Below, one piece after another: positions 2,170-60,735 of a DNA stretch of 64,000 nucleotides (position 1 is its first letter; each line of letters starts with the position of its first letter). The notes under the pieces are model-generated. The model did no database searches and was not told the DNA's origin. It saw only the letters and a list, made by a program, of their open reading frames with translations. A program made the translations under genes and the position numbers. The DNA comes from Candidatus Sungiibacteriota bacterium. Its GTDB lineage: Bacteria > Patescibacteriota > Minisyncoccia > Sungbacterales > HO2-52-23. The stretch covers positions 8,152 to 72,151 of the forward strand of contig JACOYX010000015.1 in NCBI GenBank assembly GCA_016181585.1, given 5' to 3'.

Positions 2170-2694
2170 ATGGAAGGAGATAAAGTGTCATTTGTTATAG
2201 CATTGATTATTATTATCGCTATTGCGGCATTGGGATATTGGTATTTGAGCAGGGTGCCGGAAATTCCGAATATTGCGGCACCAACACCGCCTGCACCCGC
2301 TCCCGCACCGGCGCCTACTCCTGTACCACAGCCTTCGGGCGGTGTCACTCCGCCTCCGGCAAACAGTTCGCAGATACAGGTAACTATACTGAAAGAAGGG
2401 GCGGGCGAGGGTGCAAAAAAAGGAGACACAATCACCGTAAATTATACCGGTATGTTTCTTGACGGCAAAGTATTCGATTCAAGCATTCCGCGCGGACAGC
2501 CTTTTGTGTTCAATCTTGGCGCAGGAGATGTGATTCAAGGCTGGGATGCGGGGCTTGTCGGTATGAAGTTGGGTGAGAAGCGAAAATTAGTTATTCCTCC
2601 GGAACTTGCGTACGGAAGCCGCGGAGCGGGTGACGGAGCGATACCTCCCAACTCAACCTTGGTGTTTGAAGTGGAAATGCTGAAGATTAACTAG
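2170..2694 (+). CDS. membrane-anchored FKBP-type peptidyl-prolyl cis-trans isomerase
   Basis: N-terminal TM helix, Pro/Ala-rich linker, FKBP domain (VNYTGMFLDGKVFDSS, VIQGWDAGLVGMKLGEKRKLVIPPELAYG). Alternative GTG start at 2185 behind AGGAG. Confidence 0.88.
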   Translation: MEGDKVSFVIALIIIIAIAALGYWYLSRVPEIPNIAAPTPPAPAPAPAPTPVPQPSGGVTPPPANSSQIQVTILKEGAGEGAKKGDTITVNYTGMFLDGKVFDSSIPRGQPFVFNLGAGDVIQGWDAGLVGMKLGEKRKLVIPPELAYGSRGAGDGAIPPNSTLVFEVEMLKIN

Positions 2695-4325: not shown

Positions 4326-4901
4326 ATGTTCTCACTTAAAAAAACAGTAATTATCGCCGCTGTGGCGATTGTCTTTGGGGGTTTTGGCGGATATAAAATC
4401 GGGAGCATTGCGTTTGAAGAAACGAAAGCGCCCGAGAGGATGGAAGAAAAAAAGATAACCGAGGGTGCGTTGAACCTCAAGGCAAGCCCGGCGGAAGTTC
4501 CTCTGAAGAAACCTAATCTGGTGCAGGTTCCTCCGCCTGCCCCGCAAACAAGTGCAGGCGCAGGGGAAGGCGGAAAGATTGCAATGAATGAACAAGCGGC
4601 GGGAATGAGTGTTGCCGTCGCAAACGTATCGCTCCCGGTATCCGGGTGGGTGGCGATTCACGAAGATGCGGGAGGGAAACCGGGGAAAATCCTGGGTGCG
4701 CGCCGTTTCGAGAAAGGAACGCATGCGGGTGTTGTAGAACTGCTTCGCAAAACGGAGGACGGCAAGGCATACTACGCCATGCTTCATGCCGACGATGGCG
4801 ACCGCTTGTTTGATGCAAAAAAAGATATGCCCATGAAAGATGTATCCGGTGCGGCGGTGATGGCAAAATTTAATACGGATCTGGTACCTACTTTGCAATA
4901 A
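4326..4901 (+). CDS. hypothetical membrane-anchored protein
   Basis: N-terminal TM helix, Pro-rich linker, C-terminal beta-rich domain (GWVAIHEDAGGKPGKILG). TTGCTT-N17-TATTAT promoter upstream. Confidence 0.6.
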   Translation: MFSLKKTVIIAAVAIVFGGFGGYKIGSIAFEETKAPERMEEKKITEGALNLKASPAEVPLKKPNLVQVPPPAPQTSAGAGEGGKIAMNEQAAGMSVAVANVSLPVSGWVAIHEDAGGKPGKILGARRFEKGTHAGVVELLRKTEDGKAYYAMLHADDGDRLFDAKKDMPMKDVSGAAVMAKFNTDLVPTLQ

Positions 4902-4905
4902 ATTT

Positions 4906-5202
4906 GTGAAAAAAATTTATATCAGCGCATTTATTTTCTTTGGATTTCTTCTCCAGCTTTTAATGCACGGACTGCTTGAGATTTGGTATATCAATCTTCT
5001 CCTTGCCGATTTTGGGCGATATGGATTTGGATTGGAATGGGATCAGTGGGAGTTACTGCATAATGTTTTTACTCTTGTGTTTTTAGTCGGCGGATTGTGG
5101 ATGGGGTATTCGCAAGGGAAATATTGGTGGCGCCGTATTTATGAACCGATACCGTGGTTTCGGCCGCTTCAAAAAATCAATTCAACTTCTTATACGCGAT
5201 AA
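4906..5202 (+). CDS. hypothetical small membrane protein
   Basis: GTG start; two hydrophobic helices. The 3' end overlaps the prmC ORF by 62 nt, so the boundaries of one of the two are uncertain. Confidence 0.4.
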   Translation: MKKIYISAFIFFGFLLQLLMHGLLEIWYINLLLADFGRYGFGLEWDQWELLHNVFTLVFLVGGLWMGYSQGKYWWRRIYEPIPWFRPLQKINSTSYTR

Positions 5203-5914
5203 GTATAAAGGAGACAAAACACGGCTCGTGCCGGAAGATATAAGCCGCTTAAAAAAAGGGGAGCCGGTTGATTATGTAATTGGATGGATCCCTTTCCTGG
5301 ATACGGACATTGATCTCTCAAAAAAACCGCTCATTCCGCGGTCCGAAACGGAATTTTGGGCGGGTCAAGTCATAAAAGAAATCGAAGCTTTGCGCGGACG
5401 CGATGCAAAGTTTATGTCATTGGATATTTTTGCCGGTTCCGGGTGCATTGGCACCGCGGTGCTTAAGTATTTTCCGAAAGCACGAATTGATTTTGCGGAT
5501 ATTGATCCGGAAATGATTAAGCAAATTAAAATAAACATAAAGAAAAACGGTGTCCAAAAACGAGCAAGGGTTCTGCGTTCCGACGGATTTAAAAATATAA
5601 AAAATAAATACGATTTTATCTTTGCCAATCCGCCGTATGTAAGCTCCCCGGAAATGAAAAAGTTGGCGAAGTCGGTAAAAGATTTCGAGCCGATGAATGC
5701 GCTTTTTGGCGGCAAAGACGGGCTTGAAATAATTCGGCAGTTTATTTCCGGTAGCAGGAACTTTTTAAAGGCAGGCGGAGCAGTATATATGGAATTGGGA
5801 TCGACACAAAAAAAAGCGATTGAAAAAATAGCGGAAAAAGAAAACGGGCAGGATATTAATTTTTTTAGAGATCAGTATGGGAGATGGCGTTGGATGAGGC
5901 TATTAACCAAATAG
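5141..5914 (+). CDS. prmC: release-factor glutamine N5-methyltransferase (PrmC/HemK), short form
   Basis: GEPVDYVIGW, LIPRSETE, SAM motif DIFAGSGCIG, catalytic FANPPYV. Start uncertain. Confidence 0.85.
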   Translation: MNRYRGFGRFKKSIQLLIRDKYKGDKTRLVPEDISRLKKGEPVDYVIGWIPFLDTDIDLSKKPLIPRSETEFWAGQVIKEIEALRGRDAKFMSLDIFAGSGCIGTAVLKYFPKARIDFADIDPEMIKQIKINIKKNGVQKRARVLRSDGFKNIKNKYDFIFANPPYVSSPEMKKLAKSVKDFEPMNALFGGKDGLEIIRQFISGSRNFLKAGGAVYMELGSTQKKAIEKIAEKENGQDINFFRDQYGRWRWMRLLTK

Positions 5915-15082: not shown

Positions 15083-15095
15083 GGGTTGTAAAGCG

Positions 15096-15121
15096 AAAAA
15101 ACGGCGGAAGGCCGTTTTTTA
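15096..15121. terminator. bidirectional intrinsic terminator
   Basis: AAAAAACGGC-GGAA-GCCGTTTTTT between gap (+) and 15119..15454 (-). Confidence 0.75.
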
Positions 15122-15454
15122 GTTTTTGAAGAAGAAATAATGCGCGTAGCTTGTGGCAACTACCGCACTATAAATAATAATGAGTATATACAGCACATTG
15201 ATAACCAGACCCGCGAATACATATTTTCCGGATCGGTGTATCATGATGAGCATAATCGAAAGTGCGAATATAAAAAATATTGCAATAAGCTTGACTGTTA
15301 CGATAGTTGTTGTAAAAGAATATCCCGACAGAGACTGAATACAATTTATCAGAGGATTTGCTTCAAGGCCTATTAAACAGGTAGCATGAGCGTCGAGAAT
15401 GCTCAGTGCTATGAGAATTGCTGCAATGACTACAATCTTTTTTTCTTGAGGCAT
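15119..15454 (-). CDS. hypothetical membrane protein
   Basis: 111 aa, 3-4 TM helices, AAAGGAG 6 nt before the ATG. Confidence 0.6.
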   Translation of the reverse strand: MPQEKKIVVIAAILIALSILDAHATCLIGLEANPLINCIQSLSGYSFTTTIVTVKLIAIFFIFALSIMLIMIHRSGKYVFAGLVINVLYILIIIYSAVVATSYAHYFFFKN

Positions 15455-15513
15455 TTCAGGCTCCTTTCTCGGCTTAATTGTATTATATTTTAATCATTTT
15501 GTCAAACAAGCGC

Positions 15514-15542
15514 TTGCATTTTTTATTATGAATTGATAGAAT
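15514..15542 (+). promoter_or_regulatory. putative promoter TTGCAT-N17-TAGAAT
   Basis: Hexamers read directly, upstream of 15567. Confidence 0.4.
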
Positions 15543-15566
15543 AAAAAGGCAGGAAAGGGGGAAGGA

Positions 15567-15791
15567 ATGAAATTGATTTCCGAGCTTGTTTTTGCTGGAG
15601 GGAAAACGCAAAAAGAAATTGAGCGCATGCCGGTAAATAGTGAATGGCGGAAGTCTCGCGAGTTTATTTGCAAGCGATGCGAGGGACCGGCATATTTCCA
15701 CCCCATGACAGATTGGATTTGGGGGTGTGTCACATGCGGCACTACAACGCGCTCGATTATGACGTATTTTCATCTTGAAATTTCGCGGTAG
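15567..15791 (+). CDS. small zinc-ribbon protein
   Basis: 74 aa, CKRC...CVTC pairs, purine-rich SD (GGGGGAAGG), TTGCAT-N17-TAGAAT promoter upstream. Confidence 0.55.
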   Translation: MKLISELVFAGGKTQKEIERMPVNSEWRKSREFICKRCEGPAYFHPMTDWIWGCVTCGTTTRSIMTYFHLEISR

Positions 15792-15864
15792 CAAATTTGC
15801 TGCCGCTTTATTATTCCTTTTTGTCAATCTTTGCTTTTTACCGATTTTCGTTTAAAATAACTTT

Positions 15865-18480: not shown

Positions 18481-18609
18481 TTTTAAGTGTTGTCTCCGCT
18501 TGGCATTGCGCTTTCTCGATACGCTCGGCCGCTTCTCAAAATTGTCTCGGAAGCGTAACGCCTAGCTTAGACATGCCAACTAGATGTATTGATCGACTTT
18601 TTAAAATCA
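18478..18609. repeat. F5 palindromic element between mreB and mreC
   Basis: Outer TGATTTTAA / TTAAAATCA. Core ACGCTCGGCCGCTTCTCAAAATTGTCTCGGAAGCG. Confidence 0.6.
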
Positions 18610-30968: not shown

Positions 30969-31862
30969 GTGCGCAATCGCGTTGTCTATAATCCGCGTGA
31001 GCGGAAGAAGTATAAACAGCCTTCTAAAATACGTTGGAAGGCTCTTTTGGCTGCCGCGATACTGCTTGCGCTCACGGCAGGGGTTGTTTATACAATTCGT
31101 CTCCCGCGTTTTCAAATAGGCATCATTTCGATTTCAGGGAATCAAGCAGTGAATGAAGAAATAATTCGCGGAAGCATTACTGATTTGATCCAAGGAAACT
31201 ATGCTTTTATTCTCCCGCGAAGTTTTGTTTTGTTTTTGCAGGAGGAAGAAATTGCCTCAGCGCTTAAAAAAGATTTTCCGCTTATTGAGCATGCGGAAGT
31301 GAAAAAGCAATATCCCGATTCTCTGGCCGTCCATATTACCGAGCGGAAGCTTTTTGCTATTTTTTGCAACGGAGGCGTTGAGCCAAAAAAAGAAATTTCC
31401 AATATTGGCACCTCGTCCCCCGAAACAGCAGTGAATGCAAAAGAGAGCGGCGAAGGGGAGATCCAATGCGTTTATATCGACAAAAACGGGTTTGCGTACG
31501 ATACGGCGCCTCGTTCTTCCGGCACTCTGATCACCCGCATTACGGCGTCTCAAAAGGAGCTTCCCGTGCCGTCGCAAGTGATGGGCGGAGAGCTTGTAAA
31601 GAAGATGGAATATATCGCCGCGTATCTGCCGGAAACCATCCAAGAGCGCGTCGCGGGTTTTGAATTTATCCCCGAAATTCGCGGCGAATTCAAGGTGAAA
31701 ACGCGCACCGGCTTCACGCTTCTTTTGAGGGAAGAGGACGATCCGGAAAAGATGCTCAAGATTTTAAAAACGGTGCTTGAAAGCGAGGTGAAGGATAAAA
31801 GAAAGGCGCTGGATTATGTGGATTTGAGGTTTGGAAATAAAGTTTTTTTTAAGTGGAAATAA
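30969..31862 (+). CDS. ftsQ: FtsQ/DivIB-like cell-division protein (POTRA)
   Basis: GTG start, basic N-terminus, TM helix, I..I.ISGN POTRA start. Confidence 0.65.
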   Translation: MRNRVVYNPRERKKYKQPSKIRWKALLAAAILLALTAGVVYTIRLPRFQIGIISISGNQAVNEEIIRGSITDLIQGNYAFILPRSFVLFLQEEEIASALKKDFPLIEHAEVKKQYPDSLAVHITERKLFAIFCNGGVEPKKEISNIGTSSPETAVNAKESGEGEIQCVYIDKNGFAYDTAPRSSGTLITRITASQKELPVPSQVMGGELVKKMEYIAAYLPETIQERVAGFEFIPEIRGEFKVKTRTGFTLLLREEDDPEKMLKILKTVLESEVKDKRKALDYVDLRFGNKVFFKWK

Positions 31863-31872
31863 AATTTTGTAT

Positions 31873-32026
31873 GCGGCTTTCTCGGCATTGTCTTTCTGCG
31901 GTCCGCTTGTCCGCCCAGCGGCGGACTCGCTAAGGGATCGTCGGGTTTTCATGCGAGTACGCATGAACCATGCAAACCCGACGATCCAATTACCGCAGAA
32001 AGACAATGCCGAGGTCGCTATTTTTA
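31873..32026 (+). ncRNA. candidate ~150-nt Y-shaped structured RNA or elaborate ftsQ 3' terminator
   Basis: 21-bp perfect closing stem (31881-31901 / 31993-32013). Two arms: GTCCGCC-CAGC-GGCGGAC (31909-31926) and a 13-bp stem (31936-31948 / 31974-31986) capped by CATGCG-AGTA-CGCATG. Followed by TATTTTT. Strand tentative. Confidence 0.45.
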
Positions 32027-32067
32027 CATTTTCTTTCCTGTTGTGTGTGGATGATGTGATGATTGGA

Positions 32068-32100
32068 AGAAAAAAATCAGCCCTATCCGTGGATAGGGCT
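32068..32100 (-). terminator. intrinsic terminator of the ncRNA candidate
   Basis: Minus strand: AGCCCTAT-CCACGG-ATAGGGCT followed by GATTTTTTT. Confidence 0.8.
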
Positions 32101-32442
32101 TTAAACGTTTTTACCTCTTCTTTCAAGAAAGAGCAAAAAATGGGCGAGGCGCTGTTATGTGGGAAGCGCTATCAGCGGCCTCGCCCGCGATCAGCCGATC
32201 AGACTCTTGGGCATTATTATCCCAGGAGATATCGGCTGGAGCCACCTACTCCCGCCATGCGCGTACAAAAAATATGGCCGGGGAGTAGATGAAAGGACAC
32301 GAGTCGGGCGGCGCATGAGCGTATCGCCCGACTCTGCAAAAGGAACCCGGTTTCAGGTTATTTTCCACCATCCGGGTGTGAGACGTTGAGTCTCGCCTTT
32401 CCCGCTTATCGCTAAGACGAGATATTCCTTTCGCCTTAGAAC
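32068..32442 (-). ncRNA. candidate ~375-nt structured ncRNA, class unknown
   Basis: Bounded by promoter TTGACT-N17-TATACT (32477..32449) and terminator 32100..32068. GC-rich. Perfect hairpins at 32142-32188, 32192-32238, 32246-32289, 32301-32334, 32345-32377, 32380-32394. No credible ORF. Confidence 0.6.
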
Positions 32443-32448
32443 CTCTCC

Positions 32449-32477
32449 AGTATAGCGCATTCCTATAAATAAGTCAA
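32449..32477 (-). promoter_or_regulatory. sigma70-type promoter TTGACT-N17-TATACT
   Basis: Reverse complement of 32441..32480 reads cacTTGACTtatttataggaatgcgcTATACTggagagg. Confidence 0.6.
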
Positions 32478-32561
32478 GTGAAATTTGGTATCATAGCAAA
32501 AAATGGCTTAGATAAGGCATTTTAGTATCTTCTCGACAAACTCGAAAAGTATTCACAAATA

Positions 32562-34373
32562 TTACGGCAATTTATATATAAATATTGAAGTTCCGGCGCG
32601 CGCGACGGGTTCGTATGGCTGAAGCCAGATATACGAATCTTCCGGTCCGCGGAAAAATCCGGGTGCGGTGTTTCCAAAAGTGCCCTGTTGGAATGTAGCG
32701 GAAATTGCAAACCAGCCGGATGCGGGACCTTTCGAAGATTGCCACGGCACAAACTTATCTCCCAAATAATATTTCGGATTGCTCCCGCCGAAATAATCCA
32801 CGGCAATAGTTTCTATGTTATTTTCTTCCACGAATTTGCGAAGGCGCAATAAGTCTTGCCCCCAATCGTAGTTGGAGTCAACCGCGATCTTGTATCCGTT
32901 TTTAGTGCCTCCGGCGAGTTCGTTGTAGAAACTCAAGAAATACGGATATGTTGCGATGGTTTCTGCGATAAGCCACAACACTAGTAAAGCAATCAAGCCG
33001 TATTTCGGTATTGTCGCAATAAATCTCCGCGAGAGCTCAAGAAAAACACTCATCATATTTTTTGGATTTACGGTAATGTGCATTTCCACCCATTCGGCGA
33101 GTTTTTTTCCTACCAAAAAATAAATAAAAGGAAACGTAGGGAGCACATGGCGCACCCCGATATTCAGCGGAGATATGACCGAACTTGCCCAATAGAGTGT
33201 AATAAACGAAATTGCGGAAAATTCGGTAAAGTGGGAGTGTATCCATTCTCCAATATCCGGCAATCCGTAGCCTGTTTTTTTGCGGCGGATATTTTGTATG
33301 CCGATCCAAAGCGCAAGGATCGTCAAAAGATGAAACGGCAGAGGCTCTTTATACAAATACATTACCGGAAAATATATACGGGATCCTGCGGCAGAAACTT
33401 CTCCCAAAAAATATGCCGTGTTTCCTCCGCTGGCACGCTGGGTTACCATCAAAAATCCTAGCATATATTGCCCGAGCGGGCGGGTGGCGGGATGCCGGAT
33501 GAAAAAAAGATCCAGCGAAGCAAGCGTTTTATTCGGATAAGATTCTAAAATAGCCTCCGTGTCGCGTAGTTGCTTTTCTTGCGGATAGTGCAGTACCAGC
33601 GGAATATATGCAATCCAGATAATCGCAATGCCAATACATCCGATTGCCGCTGTTTTTCCGGCAAGCGCAAAAAAATGTTTTATGCGTGCGTGCATGCGAA
33701 TTTGCGGTAGGGTAAGTGTCCACGTCAAAAGCATGATTCCATACAGCGGGATCAGGAGTACGAGTGAATATTTTAAAAGCTCTGCCATGCCGAAAAGTAA
33801 TCCGGCAATAAAAGTATTTTTCCATGTCGGATTTTCAAGAAACTTTAAAAACGCAATGAACCCGATAAAAAAGCCGAACGCCGCGCCGAGGTCGGTGGTA
33901 ACTAAGCGGCCATGCGCGAGAATGGTGGGGGAAAATGCAAAAAATATAAGGGTAAAAAGCGCGGTAAGGGGACCGAAGCGTTCGCGGGTCCAGCGCCACA
34001 AAAGCATAGCGAAAAAAAGCGTCAAGAGAATAAAAGGAACGCGCGACCAGAAAATTATGGCATCAGCGTTATTTCCGGATTCATATAAAAATATGCGGCC
34101 ATGATCCCACTGTCCGTTTATATCGCTCTGCCAAGCGCGAGTATCGGTGGGGAAATAGGGATTCACGGCAAGTTCCGCAAAAAGCGCGGAAACCATTTTC
34201 AAAAGCGGCGGATGTTCCGGATTGAGCCGTCCGTCAATTTGGGTGACATACCCGAACCCCGCGGGAATATGGGCAAGCTCATCCATGGTTGCCGAGTCGT
34301 TCCAGACCGATCCGAAAAGGAGAAGTGCTGTTAGGATAAGAATATAGGTAAGTGGTGATTTAAGTATGTGCAT
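32562..34373 (-). CDS. GT39/PMT-like (ArnT-type) lipid-carrier-dependent glycosyltransferase
   Basis: 603 aa polytopic; N-terminal loop MDELAHIPAGFGY (DE motif). Confidence 0.8.
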   Translation of the reverse strand: MHILKSPLTYILILTALLLFGSVWNDSATMDELAHIPAGFGYVTQIDGRLNPEHPPLLKMVSALFAELAVNPYFPTDTRAWQSDINGQWDHGRIFLYESGNNADAIIFWSRVPFILLTLFFAMLLWRWTRERFGPLTALFTLIFFAFSPTILAHGRLVTTDLGAAFGFFIGFIAFLKFLENPTWKNTFIAGLLFGMAELLKYSLVLLIPLYGIMLLTWTLTLPQIRMHARIKHFFALAGKTAAIGCIGIAIIWIAYIPLVLHYPQEKQLRDTEAILESYPNKTLASLDLFFIRHPATRPLGQYMLGFLMVTQRASGGNTAYFLGEVSAAGSRIYFPVMYLYKEPLPFHLLTILALWIGIQNIRRKKTGYGLPDIGEWIHSHFTEFSAISFITLYWASSVISPLNIGVRHVLPTFPFIYFLVGKKLAEWVEMHITVNPKNMMSVFLELSRRFIATIPKYGLIALLVLWLIAETIATYPYFLSFYNELAGGTKNGYKIAVDSNYDWGQDLLRLRKFVEENNIETIAVDYFGGSNPKYYLGDKFVPWQSSKGPASGWFAISATFQQGTFGNTAPGFFRGPEDSYIWLQPYEPVARAGTSIFIYKLP

Positions 34374-46472: not shown

Positions 46473-47588
46473 ATGGCAAAAGACTACTACAAAGTCCTCG
46501 GTGTGCCGCGCAATGCGACCAAAGAGGAAATAAAAAAGTCCTATCGCATGCTTGCGCATAAATTCCATCCGGACAAAGGAGGCAATGAGGCTCAGTTTAA
46601 AGAAATCAACGAAGCGTACCAAGTGCTTTCGGACGAAAAAAAACGCGCTCAATACGATCAATTTGGACAAGTTTTTGAGGGTGCGGCGGGACAACAGCAC
46701 GCGGGTGCCGGCGGGTTCGAATGGCCGGGCGGCATTAAGTTTGATTTTGGCGAGGGTGGCGCCGGCGGCAGGAATTTTGCCGACTTTGACCTCTCGGATC
46801 TTTTTGAAGATTTTTTCAGCGGTGCCGGAGCTGGCGGCAGAGGAGGACGCGCGCGGGAGCGAAAAGGCAAAGATATACAAATGGAACTTGAGATCTCATT
46901 TCAAGAGTCCATTTTTGGGGCAAAAAAAGAAATAGAATTTTCAAAAATCGGCAAATGCGTCCATTGCGGCGGAACCGGAGGTGAGCCGGGTGCTAAAATG
47001 AAAACATGTCCCGCTTGCCAAGGGAAAGGTAATATCCAAAAAACACAGCGCACATTTTTGGGAGCTTTTACGCAGGTCGCCACCTGTCCTGATTGTTTTG
47101 GGAGCGGTAAAAAACCGGAGGAAGTCTGCCGGCAGTGCCGCGGCCGCGGCATCAAAGAAATGCGCGAGCGCCTGGAAATTTATGTCCCGAAAGGCATTCG
47201 CGACGGGGAAGTTTTAAAACTTACCGGAAAGGGCGAGGTATCTTTTGCCGGGAGCGTTCCGGGGGATTTGTTTATAAAAATCCGCGTGCTTCCGCATCCT
47301 GTGTTTCGCCGGCAGGGGGATGATATTGTGATGCGCCTTCCGATAAAGCTTTCACAGGCGATTCTTGGAGATACGATGACGCTTGATACGCTTGATGGGA
47401 CATTAAAAATAAAAATTCCCGAAGGCACGCAGTCGGGAGATGTTTTGAAAGTGCGCGGCAAAGGAGCTTATGCTGTATCCGGTTACGGCCGCGGGGATTT
47501 GCTGATTGAAACCAACGTCGAGATCCCGAAAAAACTTTCTAGAAAAACCAAGGAGACTGTGGAGGAACTGAAAAAAGAAGGGTTTTAG
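46473..47588 (+). CDS. dnaJ: co-chaperone DnaJ
   Basis: J domain with HPD, G/F region, four CxxCxGxG repeats. Confidence 0.95.
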
Positions 47589-47607
47589 GGATAGTTTTGG
47601 ATATATT

Positions 47608-47838
47608 GGATATATCTTTTGAAGACACGTTCGGCCGCTTCCATCGGCGTCCTCGTGAACTTAAGCGCGGCGTCCCGATTTTCCTTTATAAATTTATTTA
47701 ATGGATATCTGGAACCAATGTTTCGTCTTTCGACGGACGAACCCCCGGGAAGTTTTAAGCGCTTCGCTAAACTTCACGCTCGAGCCAAGCAGTTGGCTCA
47801 AGCCCGCGCTTCCAAATTGTCTTCAAAAGATATAATCC
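47608..47838. repeat. F5 element with a nested ~170-nt insertion
   Basis: 20-nt inverted repeat GGATATATCTTTTGAAGACA / TGTCTTCAAAAGATATAATCC. The F5 core is split: ACGTTCGGCCGCTTCC (47628-47642) ... GCGCTTCCAAATTGTCTTC (47806-47824). Confidence 0.6.
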
Positions 47839-47881
47839 CAAACTCTCAAGTTTTTTTTCGATGATGGATTGATTGAAGCAC

Positions 47882-47930
47882 AAAAACGCTTCGTCCGCTT
47901 TGCGGATAGAGGCGTTTTTTCTTTTTCTTT
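47882..47930 (+). terminator. intrinsic terminator about 300 nt after dnaJ
   Basis: AAAAACGC..TCCGC-TTT-GCGGA..GCGTTTTTTCTTTTTCTTT. Confidence 0.65.
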
Positions 47931-47994
47931 CCACGTCGCTCGGATTTTATTTCTTTTTGAGCATGTCTTGACATAATTACCCACTAAACTTATA

Positions 47995-48221
47995 AGACCC
48001 TGTTCAACATCTTTCTTCCAGAGACATTTTAGTGATATTTTGAGCCACGCTAGAAATATAATGATTTCTAACGGAGTGAGCGAAAAACCTGAAGACCGGC
48101 GAGGCGTAGCGAATAGCTACGCTGAGGATGTCTGAAGGTTTTGCAGCTGAATTAGCAAATTCATGACTTGGTCCAAAATAGCACAAAATGGAGTCGGGAG
48201 AAGAGATGTTGAACAGGGTCT
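47995..48221. repeat. 227-bp element with 18-26-bp terminal inverted repeats (F1-like ends)
   Basis: AGACCCTGTTCAACATCTTTCTTCC ... GGAGAAGAGATGTTGAACAGGGTCT. No credible ORF inside. Confidence 0.75.
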
Positions 48222-48242: not shown

Positions 48243-49571
48243 TTATTTTGCTCGATAGCTCATTTCCCGCAACTTGTGGTGGTATTTTTTAGCGAATCGG
48301 TGGGATTCGTTGCGGACGTGCTCGAGAAAAAATTCCGCATCACGTGGAAGGGTGCGGAGCAAAATTGGTTCGGCGCGACAGGGTGTGTAGAGTTCTTCTT
48401 CGCGTTTTGCGAGTCCCACAATCATAATTTCTTTGGCAACGCCAAGCTCTTTTTGAGCGGTGTTTAGTGCTGAAAGCGCCACGCTGAGCTGTGGTTTTCC
48501 TCCGTCTATCAATATTACATCAGGATACTGCCATTCAGGATGCTGGAGACGGCGTTGAAGCACTTCCTGCATCATGGCAGAGTCATTTGGACCTAAGACT
48601 GTTTTAATTTTAAATTTTCGATACTCTGATTTTTTTGGATACCCGTTTACAAATACCACCATCGAACCGGTAGCTTCGGTGCCGGAAATATTGGATATAT
48701 CGTAGCCCTCCACACGCTTCAGGGTATTTGCGGTTTCGAGCGCCGTTTGAAGTGTTTTTTCGATATGAGCCCAGTTTCGTTTTGTGCGAAGAACTTTTTG
48801 CCGGTCAAGAGTGGTCGTATGCAAAAAGATATTTTTAAGTCCTTCAATTTGATTGCGCCGGAGCGCCGCTTTTTCAAACTGTTGGTTTTTTGCCGCTTCT
48901 TTCATTTCTTTTTTTAATTGTACAATGATTCGTTTTTTCTTGCCATTGAGTATTCCAATAATATCTTGGATATTCTTTTTATATTCCTCTTTTTTAATTT
49001 CCCACTCATGATTCATGATTCGTGATTCGTTATTCATGAATATACAGCAGTATCCAAGGCATCGGCCGATCTCGGTATTAAGGCAGGGACGCTTATGCGG
49101 CTTGAAACATGTGCAATAAGGAAAAATTTTGCGTAAAAAATGCAATACGGATTTTAATGCGGCGCCGCTGGTAAAAGGGCCGATGTGGTAAGCGATGGTT
49201 TTTGAGCTCCTGGCGGTTTGTTTTTGCGTAAACGAGCTATGGGTGATAAAAATTTTTGGAAATGCTTCGCGGGTGATGGCGGCATAAAAATAGCTCTTGT
49301 CGTCCCGAAGGACAATGTTGTACTTTGGGATATGATTTTTGATGTATTCAGCTTCCTTTATAAGTGCGTCTATTTCCGATTCCAATTCGCGCCATTCGAC
49401 ACGATCCGCTTCTGCAAGAAGCGATGTGACTTTTGTTCCGGCATTTTTCCGCCAATAGCTCGACAAGCGGCTCCGGAGATCGCGTGCTTTCCCGACATAT
49501 AGCATGTTTATACCCTTTTTAAAAAAATATATGCCTGGAGTATGGGGAATTTGTTCTGGTTTTTTCAGCAT
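48243..49571 (-). CDS. uvrC: excinuclease subunit UvrC, short form lacking C-terminal (HhH)2
   Basis: GIY-YIG (PGIYFF..YVGKA), UVR helix (FEKAALRRNQIEGL), RNase-H-like endonuclease (EGYDISN). 442 aa. Confidence 0.9.
   Translation of the reverse strand: MLKKPEQIPHTPGIYFFKKGINMLYVGKARDLRSRLSSYWRKNAGTKVTSLLAEADRVEWRELESEIDALIKEAEYIKNHIPKYNIVLRDDKSYFYAAITREAFPKIFITHSSFTQKQTARSSKTIAYHIGPFTSGAALKSVLHFLRKIFPYCTCFKPHKRPCLNTEIGRCLGYCCIFMNNESRIMNHEWEIKKEEYKKNIQDIIGILNGKKKRIIVQLKKEMKEAAKNQQFEKAALRRNQIEGLKNIFLHTTTLDRQKVLRTKRNWAHIEKTLQTALETANTLKRVEGYDISNISGTEATGSMVVFVNGYPKKSEYRKFKIKTVLGPNDSAMMQEVLQRRLQHPEWQYPDVILIDGGKPQLSVALSALNTAQKELGVAKEIMIVGLAKREEELYTPCRAEPILLRTLPRDAEFFLEHVRNESHRFAKKYHHKLREMSYRAK
49007..49040. 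repeat. F3 half-element inside the uvrC CDS
   Basis: CATGATTCATGATTCGTGATTCGTTATTCATGAA matches the dnaK-leader arm (about 25/30). Encodes FMNNESRIMNHE on the minus strand. Confidence 0.6.
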
Positions 49572-60003: not shown

Positions 60004-60267
60004 ATGAAAGTTTCCATCTACTCCATTCAAAATACCCTCTATGAAGGGGATGCGGAAAAACTCATCATCAAAACGCCGATGGGGGAGATTGCGGTACTTG
60101 AAAACCACTTGCCGATAGTTTCTAAAGTCATCGGCCCGTCAGCAAAAATTATTGACAAAAATAAAAAAGAGCATACAATTAAACTATCATCCGGTTTTAT
60201 TGAGGTACGCCATCAAGAGACTGGCGGAGAAAGCCGTGTAGTCATTTTGGCGGAAGGAGAGAAATAA
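60004..60267 (+). CDS. atpC: F-type ATP synthase subunit epsilon (beta-sandwich only, 87 aa)
   Basis: ATG 60004 (MKVSIYS...) within ORF 59980..60267. G.I.VL.NH.P pattern. No C-terminal helical hairpin. Confidence 0.8.
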   Translation: MKVSIYSIQNTLYEGDAEKLIIKTPMGEIAVLENHLPIVSKVIGPSAKIIDKNKKEHTIKLSSGFIEVRHQETGGESRVVILAEGEK

Positions 60268-60273
60268 AATCTT

Positions 60274-60735
60274 ATGCTCCCTGAACCATTTCTCAAGTTC
60301 AAATATTCCATGGAGCACTACACTGCCGGAGCGTATGTGGTGCGGTGTTTCGATGACCGCGAGCAGTTTCGAAAAGGTTTTGACGATGTTATGCATACGC
60401 TCGATTTGGAGCACTACGACGGTCCGGTGTCGCTTGCCGGAGGCGCAAAAGTTCTTGCAAAACCGGAACATGAGCATATTGCCGATTTTTTTTCAGGTGA
60501 AATCGCAAAATCGGAGAAACTGCATCATACTAAGCGGGTTATACTTTTTTCCCATCATGACTGCGGCGCATGCGGAGGGTTTGCGGCGTTCGATAACGAC
60601 TACGAAAAAGAGTTTGAATTTCATAAAGAAGAATTGCATCGAAAAGCGCGGGAAAGTATTTTACAAAAATTTCCCAATATGCATATTGATTGCTTCTTTA
60701 TTGGGCACAACGGTGCACACAAATTTTCTTTTTAG
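60274..60735 (+). CDS. hypothetical protein with beta-carbonic-anhydrase-like zinc motifs
   Basis: VVRCFDDR (CxDxR) at residues 25-29 and SHHDCGACGG (HxxC) at 94-97, with an intervening LAGG. Fold assignment is tentative. Confidence 0.45.
   Translation: MLPEPFLKFKYSMEHYTAGAYVVRCFDDREQFRKGFDDVMHTLDLEHYDGPVSLAGGAKVLAKPEHEHIADFFSGEIAKSEKLHHTKRVILFSHHDCGACGGFAAFDNDYEKEFEFHKEELHRKARESILQKFPNMHIDCFFIGHNGAHKFSF

Follow-up and report, generated by a model that had tools for sequence, protein, structure and literature searches.

A candidate structured non-coding RNA gene at a conserved promoter, and a duplicated three-way-junction RNA module, between GT39 and ftsQ genes of Candidatus Sungbacteria

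What does the gap between the convergent ftsQ-like and GT39 genes of an uncultured groundwater bacterium, Candidatus Sungbacteria (candidate phyla radiation (CPR)/Patescibacteria), encode? The locus was analyzed within a stretch of 64,000 nt of a metagenome-assembled genome, hereafter the window, to which all window coordinates refer, and the RNA gene discussed here is read on its minus strand. Much of bacterial diversity belongs to the CPR, whose tiny genomes have discarded most non-essential DNA; to our knowledge, almost no lineage-specific non-coding RNAs of this group have been described. The initial annotation, made from the sequence, proposed that the gap carries a structured RNA of about 375 nt bounded by a promoter and a terminator. 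We consider it moderately likely that the interval holds a non-coding RNA gene that is transcribed independently and whose product would be a stable structural RNA occupying a conserved socket with rRNA-like expression, and that it is followed by a separate module containing a second structured element (element 2).

Along the minus strand, the end of the GT39 (PMT_2) gene at 32562 is followed by its terminator, a promoter, the RNA, further terminators, and the convergent ftsQ gene. The near-consensus promoter TTGACT-N17-TATACT (32477-32449) reported initially was recovered both by reading the sequence and by scanning, and this predicted sigma-70-type promoter matches 10 of the 12 consensus positions with a 17-nt spacer. 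A single promoter or terminator match in the window is within the shuffle expectation of a simple scanner; the significance of these matches comes from their conservation in relatives. We fetched 160 loci around FtsQ homologues and eight around GT39 homologues (numbered with the prefix L below) and scanned 1.84 Mb in total. A strict pattern, TTGAC[AT]-N16-18-TA[TC]A[AC]T, was found at the same position and in the same orientation in 21 of the 158 FtsQ loci and in L165, L167, L168, L170, and L171, and a set of five newly fetched GT39-anchored loci had it in four; about 26 of its 41 matches in the 1.84 Mb fell at the GT39-ftsQ locus. The relatives mostly carry TTGACA-N17-TTTGCTATAAT, on the strand opposite ftsQ and right after the GT39 terminator. 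The promoter regions of the window and L165 gave a local alignment z-score of 12.3, and the GT39 terminator of the window aligned with its counterparts in L082 and L165. This conservation is the strongest evidence for a predicted RNA transcription unit. That the RNA is highly expressed, as first proposed, would follow from the promoter sequence only.

The whole arrangement of GT39 gene, terminator, consensus promoter, ORF-free (open reading frame-free) structured RNA, terminator, and convergent ftsQ is shared by about 26 related loci, in which the RNAs are 270-1000 nt long, contain no credible ORFs, and are followed by terminators. Minimum free energies (MFE) were compared with those of dinucleotide shuffles, and 19 of the 19 syntenic RNAs tested folded better than their shuffles (z from -3.4 to -11.1). 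The window RNA reached -164.7 kcal/mol against -119.9 +/- 5.5 for 100 shuffles, none of which was as good (z = -8.2), and 15 coding controls of 375 nt each from the same window gave z-scores of -1.9 to +1.6. Conservation of the socket together with these fold statistics is the main argument that the locus may hold a genuine, selected RNA gene.

The body itself appears to be non-coding. Inside the RNA, no minus-strand ORF exceeds 41 amino acids (the longest have 40-41 and lack a Shine-Dalgarno sequence), and Pfam matched neither of the two longer ORFs across the gap, in keeping with the initial view that the gap lacks a credible ORF. A pseudogene of the 185-amino-acid protein that occupies the site in L162 was rejected for want of any tblastn similarity. 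The gap is richer in G+C than its flanks, as had been noted, although the contrast is modest (0.51-0.55 versus 0.36-0.47). All six perfect hairpins listed at the outset were found: inverted repeats I16 (GGGCGAGGC/GCCTCGCCC), I24 (CAGCCGAT/ATCGGCTG), I12 (CTACTCCC), and I5 (GAGTCGGGCG/CGCCCGACTC), and the pairs ACCCGG/CCGGGT and GAGAC/GTCTC, which appear in the MFE fold. The predicted sigma-70-type promoter behind the GT39 terminator would start a minus-strand RNA, and this ORF-free transcript would fold into a 5' multi-branch domain followed by four long hairpins, ending at hairpin H5 and a run of six U residues (Table 1). Its product may be stable, abundant, and trans-acting, with an activity that would reside in shape or stability and not in a conserved sequence core; it might serve, for instance, as a scaffold or decoy for proteins. 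No second copy of the body was found within the window, and an origin as a dispersed repeat, a miniature inverted-repeat transposable element (MITE), or a repetitive extragenic palindrome was rejected on that ground; a phage origin was rejected because the body had no match to phage genomes. Deposited Candidatus Sungbacteria proteins match the FtsQ-like and GT39 proteins on either side at 100% identity, and an identical locus is present in an independent Logan assembly, so that the arrangement is not an assembly artefact.

Table 1. Coordinates and basis of the features described at the GT39-ftsQ locus and of the second copy of the downstream module.
Feature	Position	Strand	Basis
Intrinsic terminator of the upstream GT39 (PMT_2) gene, hairpin AAAAUGCCUUA/UAAGCCAUUUU + U-run	32500..32523	-	inverted repeat I9
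-35 hexamer TTGACT	32472..32477	-	scan; TTGACA in ~25 syntenic loci
-10 hexamer TATACT, context GCGCTATACT; relatives: TTTGCTATAAT	32449..32454	-	scan and conservation
Candidate non-coding RNA body, putative start ~7 nt past the -10 hexamer, to the end of U6 after H5; orphan sequence	32135..32442	-	z = -7.4 for 32125-32442
5' multi-branch domain closed by GCGAAAGGA/UCCUUUUGC, with GCGA-loop hairpin, GAGAC/GUCUC, and ACCCGG/CCGGGU	32336..32434	-	MFE, centroid, I19
Hairpin H2 GAGUCGGGCG/CGCCCGACUC, 10 perfect pairs	32301..32334	-	I5, fold
Hairpin H3 CUACUCCC(CG)GCCAU/AUGGCGGGAGUAG	32243..32291	-	I12, fold
Hairpin H4 CAGCCGAU/AUCGGCUG, inner helix CUGGG/CCCAAG	32192..32238	-	I24, fold
T1: hairpin H5 GGGCGAGGC/GCCUCGCCC (32186-32142), then A (32141) and U6 (32140-32135)	32135..32186	-	I16, sequence
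boxA-like heptamer GCUCUUU, context UUUUUUGCUCUUUCUUG	32128..32134	-	motif scan
T2: purine-rich GAAAGAAGAGGUAAAAACG, hairpin AGCCCUAUCC/GGAUAGGGCU (32100-32079), U7 (32076-32070); 5' flank of the module	32070..32124	-	scanner
C/A-rich, G-poor spacer CUUCCAAUCAUCACAUCAUCCACACACAAC...	32014..32069	-	conserved upstream of both module copies, in L165 and L002
Element 2, three-way-junction RNA	31881..32013	-	covariance model and covariation
Second module copy: flank and element 2 with a 128-nt insertion in P2a	47606..47950	-	model R2, flank alignment A10

Several observations weigh against reading the body as a selected minus-strand RNA. The plus strand folds about equally well (-162.4 kcal/mol, z = -8.1), and folding energy thus gives no strand call; among the RNAs of 18 relatives, MFE favoured the sense strand in 11 and the antisense strand in seven. 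We therefore agree with the original statement that the choice of strand rests on the promoter and the terminator. Moreover, local alignments of the window body with those of L165 and L082 stayed at shuffle level (z = -0.1 and 0.3), and because the body cannot be aligned with its relatives, no covariation is demonstrable for the hairpins of the window. The homologous regions with covarying pairs that the initial annotation had named as its own test thus failed to appear for the body, which has no detectable similarity in its closest relatives. Promoter conservation, synteny, and structure statistics nevertheless lend support to its broader proposal of a stand-alone, minus-strand, non-coding, highly structured unit.

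At the DNA level, the closest relative, L165, whose GT39 protein is 78% identical, shares 74% identity with the window across the GT39 gene and 73% over the interval that begins at the spacer and runs past element 2 into ftsQ, and the stretch from the promoter to the second terminator does not align. The bodies of L165 and L082 are similar to one another (z = 28), as are the downstream modules of the window and L165 (z = 43). Searches of the gap with nhmmer and blastn against more than 160 loci matched only element 2 and its flanks; most of the relatives' bodies showed no mutual similarity with the same programs, iterative nhmmer from blocks of L082, L165, and L167 recruited no further sequences, and the window was misaligned with L082 by MAFFT/RNAalifold. 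On this sequence evidence the bodies are several mutually unalignable types, and that of the window appears as an orphan, which within its own lineage was replaced or else diverged until no longer recognisable. Where sub-types can be aligned, structure is kept: L088 and L004 show compensatory pairs, conserved junctions, and a conserved long-range helix with its enclosed hairpin exchanged for another, and the bodies of L009 and L171 are about 90% identical, with compensatory changes, while their terminators and downstream elements differ.

An orphan body of this kind is what would be expected if the gap were non-functional filler, that is, a hotspot prone to recombination or insertion that gathers hairpin DNA, with the promoter kept for another reason, for example to insulate the transcription of the convergent GT39 gene from that of ftsQ or to transcribe what lies downstream. 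Such an account would also suit the equal folding of both strands and the variation of locus content among close relatives, which includes extra small ORFs (L165, L088, and L171), another gene (L166 and L169), and the 185-amino-acid ORF of L162. However, neutral sequence would not be expected to keep z-scores of -3.4 to -11 in 19 of 19 lineages, nor perfect stems of 9-13 bp; the promoter, among the best sigma-70 matches in the 1.84 Mb, is conserved precisely at this locus; the alignable sub-types show compensatory changes, conserved junctions, and swapped peripheral hairpins; and the window contains no further copy of the stretch. We thus regard filler as quite unlikely. Small ORFs of about 40-75 amino acids, several with CxxC pairs, were observed in L088 (4191-4346, minus strand), L171 (4482-4600, plus), L165 (3216-3437, plus), and L009 (about 4780-4920, minus). 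As judged from these insertions at varied points of the gap, the locus is a likely hotspot of gain and loss.

A probable end of the RNA was assigned by comparison within the window. Both T1 (H5 and U6) and T2 have the features of predicted intrinsic terminators, namely a G+C-rich hairpin and a U-tract, T1 having been read from the sequence and T2 found by the scanner. In T2, the hairpin is separated from U7 by GA, and a small A/U hairpin sits between GCUCUUUCUU and the T2 hairpin. The initial annotation had ended the RNA at a "textbook terminator" at 32100-32068. Its hairpin and U7 are indeed present, but they belong to a repeated module and are likely not the terminator of the RNA itself. About 95 nt upstream of both copies of element 2 in the window are paralogous, and the counterpart of 32070-32124 lies at 47860-47950; the shared flank, which contains the terminator in question, consists of purine-rich GAAAGAAGAGGUAAAAACG, a CUAUCC hairpin with a U-run, and CUUC(C)AAUCA..CAUCAUC. 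The T2 flank of the window also aligns with L165 and L082, and L082 has an equivalent hairpin and U-run at the place of T1. Since the T2 flank is paralogous to that of the second module copy, 32124-31881 is best treated as a separate module and the RNA as ending at H5 and U6. The RNA's own terminator is therefore probably T1, which would set the 3' boundary there. The proposed length of about 375 nt is accordingly reduced: the stretch is ORF-free and structured as described, but the RNA more likely measures about 310 nt.

The downstream module contains a well-conserved element. An nhmmer search first matched 31873-32058 to L002 and L009, and covariance models were built from element 2 (R1, then the refined R2). 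These matched seven further loci from six other genomes at 103-130 bits. Element 2 lies directly downstream of a convergent ftsQ in L002, L009, L088/L090, L004, L082, and L165; L084/L162 hold two copies, the second scoring 75 bits; one copy lies between the lysS terminator and the start of serS and one between two GT39 genes. Its closing stem P1 is a perfect duplex of 22 bp in the window (32013-31992 / 31902-31881) and a near-perfect one of 17-22 bp in every copy. Two arms follow, P2/P2a with the conserved internal loop GCAUGGUU and P3 with the loop GCUGG, and they are joined by the conserved junction strands GACAAUGGGAGG, CCCUUAGCGAG, and GAGCGUGUC. Over nine sequences, 88.8% of the cells were paired and 37 of the 44 pairs showed compensatory changes; none of 500 shuffles reached any observed measure, and slid controls gave 37-48% pairing. 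The modelled orientation has 18 G-U against seven A-C combinations, which favours the minus strand, and in every locus this orientation is that of the upstream neighbour. No Rfam family matched element 2.

A second copy of the module was found in the window between uvrC (48243-49571, minus strand) and dnaJ (46473-47588, plus strand), both assigned by Pfam. Its element 2 (47606-47840) was matched by R2 at 38.1 bits (E of 1e-6 over all loci and 2e-9 locally). Although element 2 has two copies in the window, a MITE was rejected: the terminal stems differ and covary, and the internal loops are conserved, the opposite of what a MITE shows. As far as sequence comparison can tell, 32124-31881 is a separate duplicated module, and its predicted core is a distinct, well-conserved new RNA motif that occurs in several copies per genome. 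The length of P1 suggests RNase III processing or a partner that binds double-stranded RNA, and the invariant junction strands suggest a specific ligand-binding, protein-binding, or catalytic role. The C/A-rich spacer ahead of element 2 might serve as a Rho-loading (rut-like) site.

Three side observations concern element 2 and its surroundings. In L162 (1104-1263, plus strand), the likely Shine-Dalgarno sequence of serS falls within the 3' arm of P1 (..GCGGAAGGCGAACGAAAUG), and this is the only copy that resembles a cis-regulator. In the uvrC-dnaJ gap, an 18-nt perfect inverted repeat, AGACCCUGUUCAACAUCU/AGAUGUUGAACAGGGUCU (48221-48204 and 48012-47995), encloses about 190 nt at 47995-48221. 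R2 also gave a weak match of 65 nt in the mreB-mreC gap (18500-18564, minus strand; 23.8 bits, E of 0.005), which is probably just a long hairpin.

Element 2 has partial counterparts among known RNAs. It resembles the TPP and purine riboswitches and the hammerhead ribozyme in its compact three-way junction, where the junction strands are invariant and the helices covary, and Y RNAs and stable RNAs excised by RNase III in its long terminal duplex. However, its P1 of 17-22 bp is far longer than that of riboswitches and most copies have no downstream gene, and it carries neither the CUGAUGA...GAAA signature of the hammerhead nor a T-loop signature. Its covariation is as strong as that of accepted Rfam families, and several copies are found per genome.

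The conservation of the module invites a different view of the locus, in which the promoter would mainly serve element 2. The body of about 310 nt would then be a dispensable, Rho-resistant leader; a boxA-modified polymerase would read through T1, T2, and the C-rich spacer; and RNase III would excise element 2 from P1, as rRNAs are released from their processing stems. Between the window and L165 the module is as conserved as coding DNA (73%, z = 43) with the body free to vary, a boxA-like motif stands just before the module, P1 is a near-perfect duplex of 17-22 bp in every copy, and element 2 always follows a co-oriented upstream unit. Two good intrinsic terminators (H5 with U6, and a 10-bp stem with U7) nonetheless separate the promoter from element 2, the RNAs of L098, L086, L106, L006, L167, and L171 have no element 2 behind them, and nothing comparable to this promoter or leader precedes the copies in L162 and at 47606-47840. 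A leader or precursor role is, in our judgement, unlikely.

The same arrangement could also act in cis on ftsQ, with strong transcription toward its 3' end modulating the gene by polymerase collision, or by antisense RNA when the terminators are bypassed. The convergent arrangement, kept in all syntenic loci, and a boxA-like antitermination signal ahead of the terminators would fit this idea. We hold it to be improbable, since tandem terminators, a rut-like spacer, and the 22-bp stem lie between the promoter and ftsQ, and a simple antisense role needs no elaborate structure of 300-1000 nt.

Coming back to an independent RNA gene, its rRNA-like expression was suggested by a short motif. Directly after the A and U6 of T1 comes GCUCUUUCUU, which contains the heptamer GCUCUUU. 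The motif G[CU]UCU[UC]U occurs in 15 of 25 syntenic RNAs, with 20 sense and six antisense occurrences (3.7 +/- 1.8 in shuffles), and its frequency there is 2.8 times that in all fetched DNA taken as background (P = 5e-5). For boxA, the consensus GYTCTTTAANA has been published (PMC5725501), and antitermination that depends on boxA has been described for long transcripts that are not translated, such as CRISPR arrays (PMC7665894). The full consensus is matched exactly in L085 (GUUCUUUAAAA) and L113 (GUUCUUUAAUA), perfect 11-mers numbering two in 17 kb and 11 in the 1.84 Mb (P = 0.005). The recurrent GYUCUUU might thus be a boxA that loads NusB/NusE and would promote rRNA-like, Rho-resistant transcription and folding of the untranslated RNA.

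For the heptamer of the window itself, three observations speak against that role. The motif GCUCUUU-CUUG (32134-32124) matches 7/7 core positions and 0/3 of AANA, although the published consensus may not be the clade's own; it overlaps the U-rich terminator tail of H5; and the motif lies near helices no more often than random positions do (11/20 against 127/300), which leaves a specific placement after helices unsupported. The identification of the window heptamer as a boxA that loads NusB/NusE is thus put forward tentatively, as somewhat short of probable. The window itself contains no nusB or rho gene and no rRNA leader. The alternative that GUUCUUU is a mere terminator tail of this clade was rejected by inspection, as GT39 terminators carry plain U-runs, and a search for seed pairing of GCUCUUUCUU with purine-rich ribosome-binding sites yielded one unconvincing site. 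If true, the boxA reading would extend Nus-factor-assisted transcription of non-ribosomal structured RNAs to the CPR.

The size of the RNA, in the range of RNase P RNA and tmRNA, its housekeeping-type promoter, and its core-genome location raised the question of whether a very divergent universal RNA (RNase P, tmRNA, signal recognition particle (SRP), or 6S RNA) had been missed in the CPR by current models. Short look-alike strings do occur in relatives (GGAGGAAAG in L095 and GUCCGAAAGGAGGCA in L086). At gathering thresholds, Rfam 15 matched nothing in the whole window; at E <= 10 with permissive filters, the region 31800-32620 returned only terminator look-alikes and miRNA or snoRNA noise, and 28 related loci at E <= 0.1-1 only miRNA, snoRNA, or leader noise. 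ARAGORN found no tRNA or tmRNA in the window or in 20 related loci. The 64 kb of core chromosome (1-64000) are thus free of any tRNA, tmRNA, or Rfam family by these two programs.

Each family was also considered for itself. RNase P RNA (RF00010/RF00011; P1-P4 core, CR-I GGAAAGUCC, and CR-V) was rejected because there was no Rfam match and no long-range P1/P4 pairing, and tmRNA, with a tRNA-like domain formed from both ends and a tag reading frame, because neither ARAGORN nor Rfam called it. SRP RNA (RF00169/RF01854; helix 8 and GNAR tetraloop) had no Rfam match in the window or in relatives, and for 6S RNA (RF00013) there was likewise none, the MFE and centroid folds being tandem local hairpins and not a rod. 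ROOL, GOLLD, OLE, HEARO, and raiA are all modelled in Rfam 15 and were matched neither at E <= 10 nor in relatives. Group I and group II introns were rejected for lack of an Rfam match and of flanking tRNA or rRNA exon halves; GAGACUCAACG, which recalls the group I R element, folds as a local hairpin. An intron-split tRNA, suggested by a publication about group I introns within tRNA genes of Patescibacteria, was not found by ARAGORN either. A literature search on CPR non-coding RNAs or Patescibacteria RNase P returned nothing relevant. The initial statement that the RNA belongs to none of the classes RNase P, tmRNA, SRP, 6S, ROOL, GOLLD, HEARO, raiA, and OLE was thus borne out by Rfam and ARAGORN. 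Given these results, the tandem local hairpins in place of a pseudoknotted P1-P4 core or a 6S rod, and the fact that any universal RNA would remain alignable at a distance where GT39 proteins are still 78% identical, we find a divergent universal RNA highly improbable.

Several known systems share part of these features. Like the large orphan RNAs OLE, ROOL, GOLLD, and raiA, the candidate is a stand-alone gene of several hundred nucleotides with its own promoter and terminator, many hairpins, no protein, and no obvious target; those RNAs, however, have conserved cores, covariation, and Rfam models, whereas the window RNA has none of these and comes from a CPR lineage. With 6S and Ms1 RNAs it would share the character of a presumed abundant housekeeping RNA of poor sequence conservation that is defined mainly by structure, but 6S is a rod of about 180 nt with a central bubble resembling an open promoter, and here a 5' multi-branch domain and tandem hairpins span 270-1000 nt without an Rfam match. 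A consensus-strength promoter and sense-enriched GYUCUUU recall rRNA leaders with nut-like boxB-boxA sites (NusB-NusE-NusA-NusG-SuhB), except that no rRNA, tRNA, or CRISPR array lies downstream and the window copy has the heptamer only, in a terminator tail. The variable number of hairpins, the fast turnover of sequence and length, the strong promoter, and the rho-independent terminator resemble CsrB/RsmZ; in contrast to those RNAs, inspection showed no repeated loop motif, GGA occurs about seven times in 375 nt, near random expectation, and csrA was not seen among the genes of the window.

In more than 25 lineages with minimal genomes, the locus has retained a promoter of top strength together with several hundred nucleotides of folded, untranslated RNA, which argues for an unrecognised function. 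Structure kept without sequence is unusual for large bacterial RNAs, and the locus may offer a test case for RNA evolution driven by structure alone or by conflict. A more far-reaching proposal, speculative and rather unlikely in our estimation, is that the promoter, a boxA-type signal, and the terminators form an expression socket that in different Sungbacteria lineages hosts non-homologous, rapidly replaced, extremely structured RNAs. The locus would then be hypervariable and under diversifying or structure-only selection, its RNAs acting for example as decoys or scaffolds in phage or host conflict. The flanking new multi-copy three-way-junction class would be a ribozyme, a sensor of a ligand or protein, or a stable RNA matured by RNase III.

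Other structured elements were observed at this locus in relatives. At the place of element 2, L085 (3990-4100, minus strand) and L113 (780-880, minus strand) share a different conserved structured element with a closing stem AACGGUUGCGAG/CUCGCAACCGUU and inner hairpins. Between the RNA gene and ftsQ, L006 (3880-3950, minus) and L021 (3800-3990, minus; two copies) have AT-rich long hairpins with a conserved GCGACCGC loop. Bodies containing "unit A" carry a T-arm-like hairpin, in L167 at 5235-5260 (plus; GCAG-UUCGAGU-CUGC) and in L082 at about 2310-2330 (minus), followed by conserved GAAGGUGAA; ARAGORN called no tRNA or tmRNA there. In L082 (1905-2612, minus) and L168 (4428-5034, plus), two tandem structured units stand behind one promoter, each ending in a hairpin and GUUCUUU, and these recall the leader and spacer boxA sites of rRNA operons.

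Finally, the window represents core chromosome, with tgt, rsmE, mreB/C (mreBCD), the gene for PBP2, greA, lysS, serS, a FemAB gene, ftsQ, two GT39 genes, a gene for a VirD4-like ATPase, hrcA-grpE-dnaK-dnaJ, uvrC, uvrA, truB, and ATP synthase genes. Two further promoters were seen in it. A near-consensus one at 15505 (minus strand), in another gap of 780 bp (15083-15864), appears to drive a hydrophobic membrane protein of 111 amino acids (15454-15119; ribosome-binding site GAAAGGAG) and not an RNA; about 350 nt of that gap (15506-15864) are left unaccounted for by this gene. The third strict match in the window, at 60152 (plus strand; TTGACAAAAATAAAAAAGAGCATACAAT), lies upstream of ORFs at 60274 and 60335.

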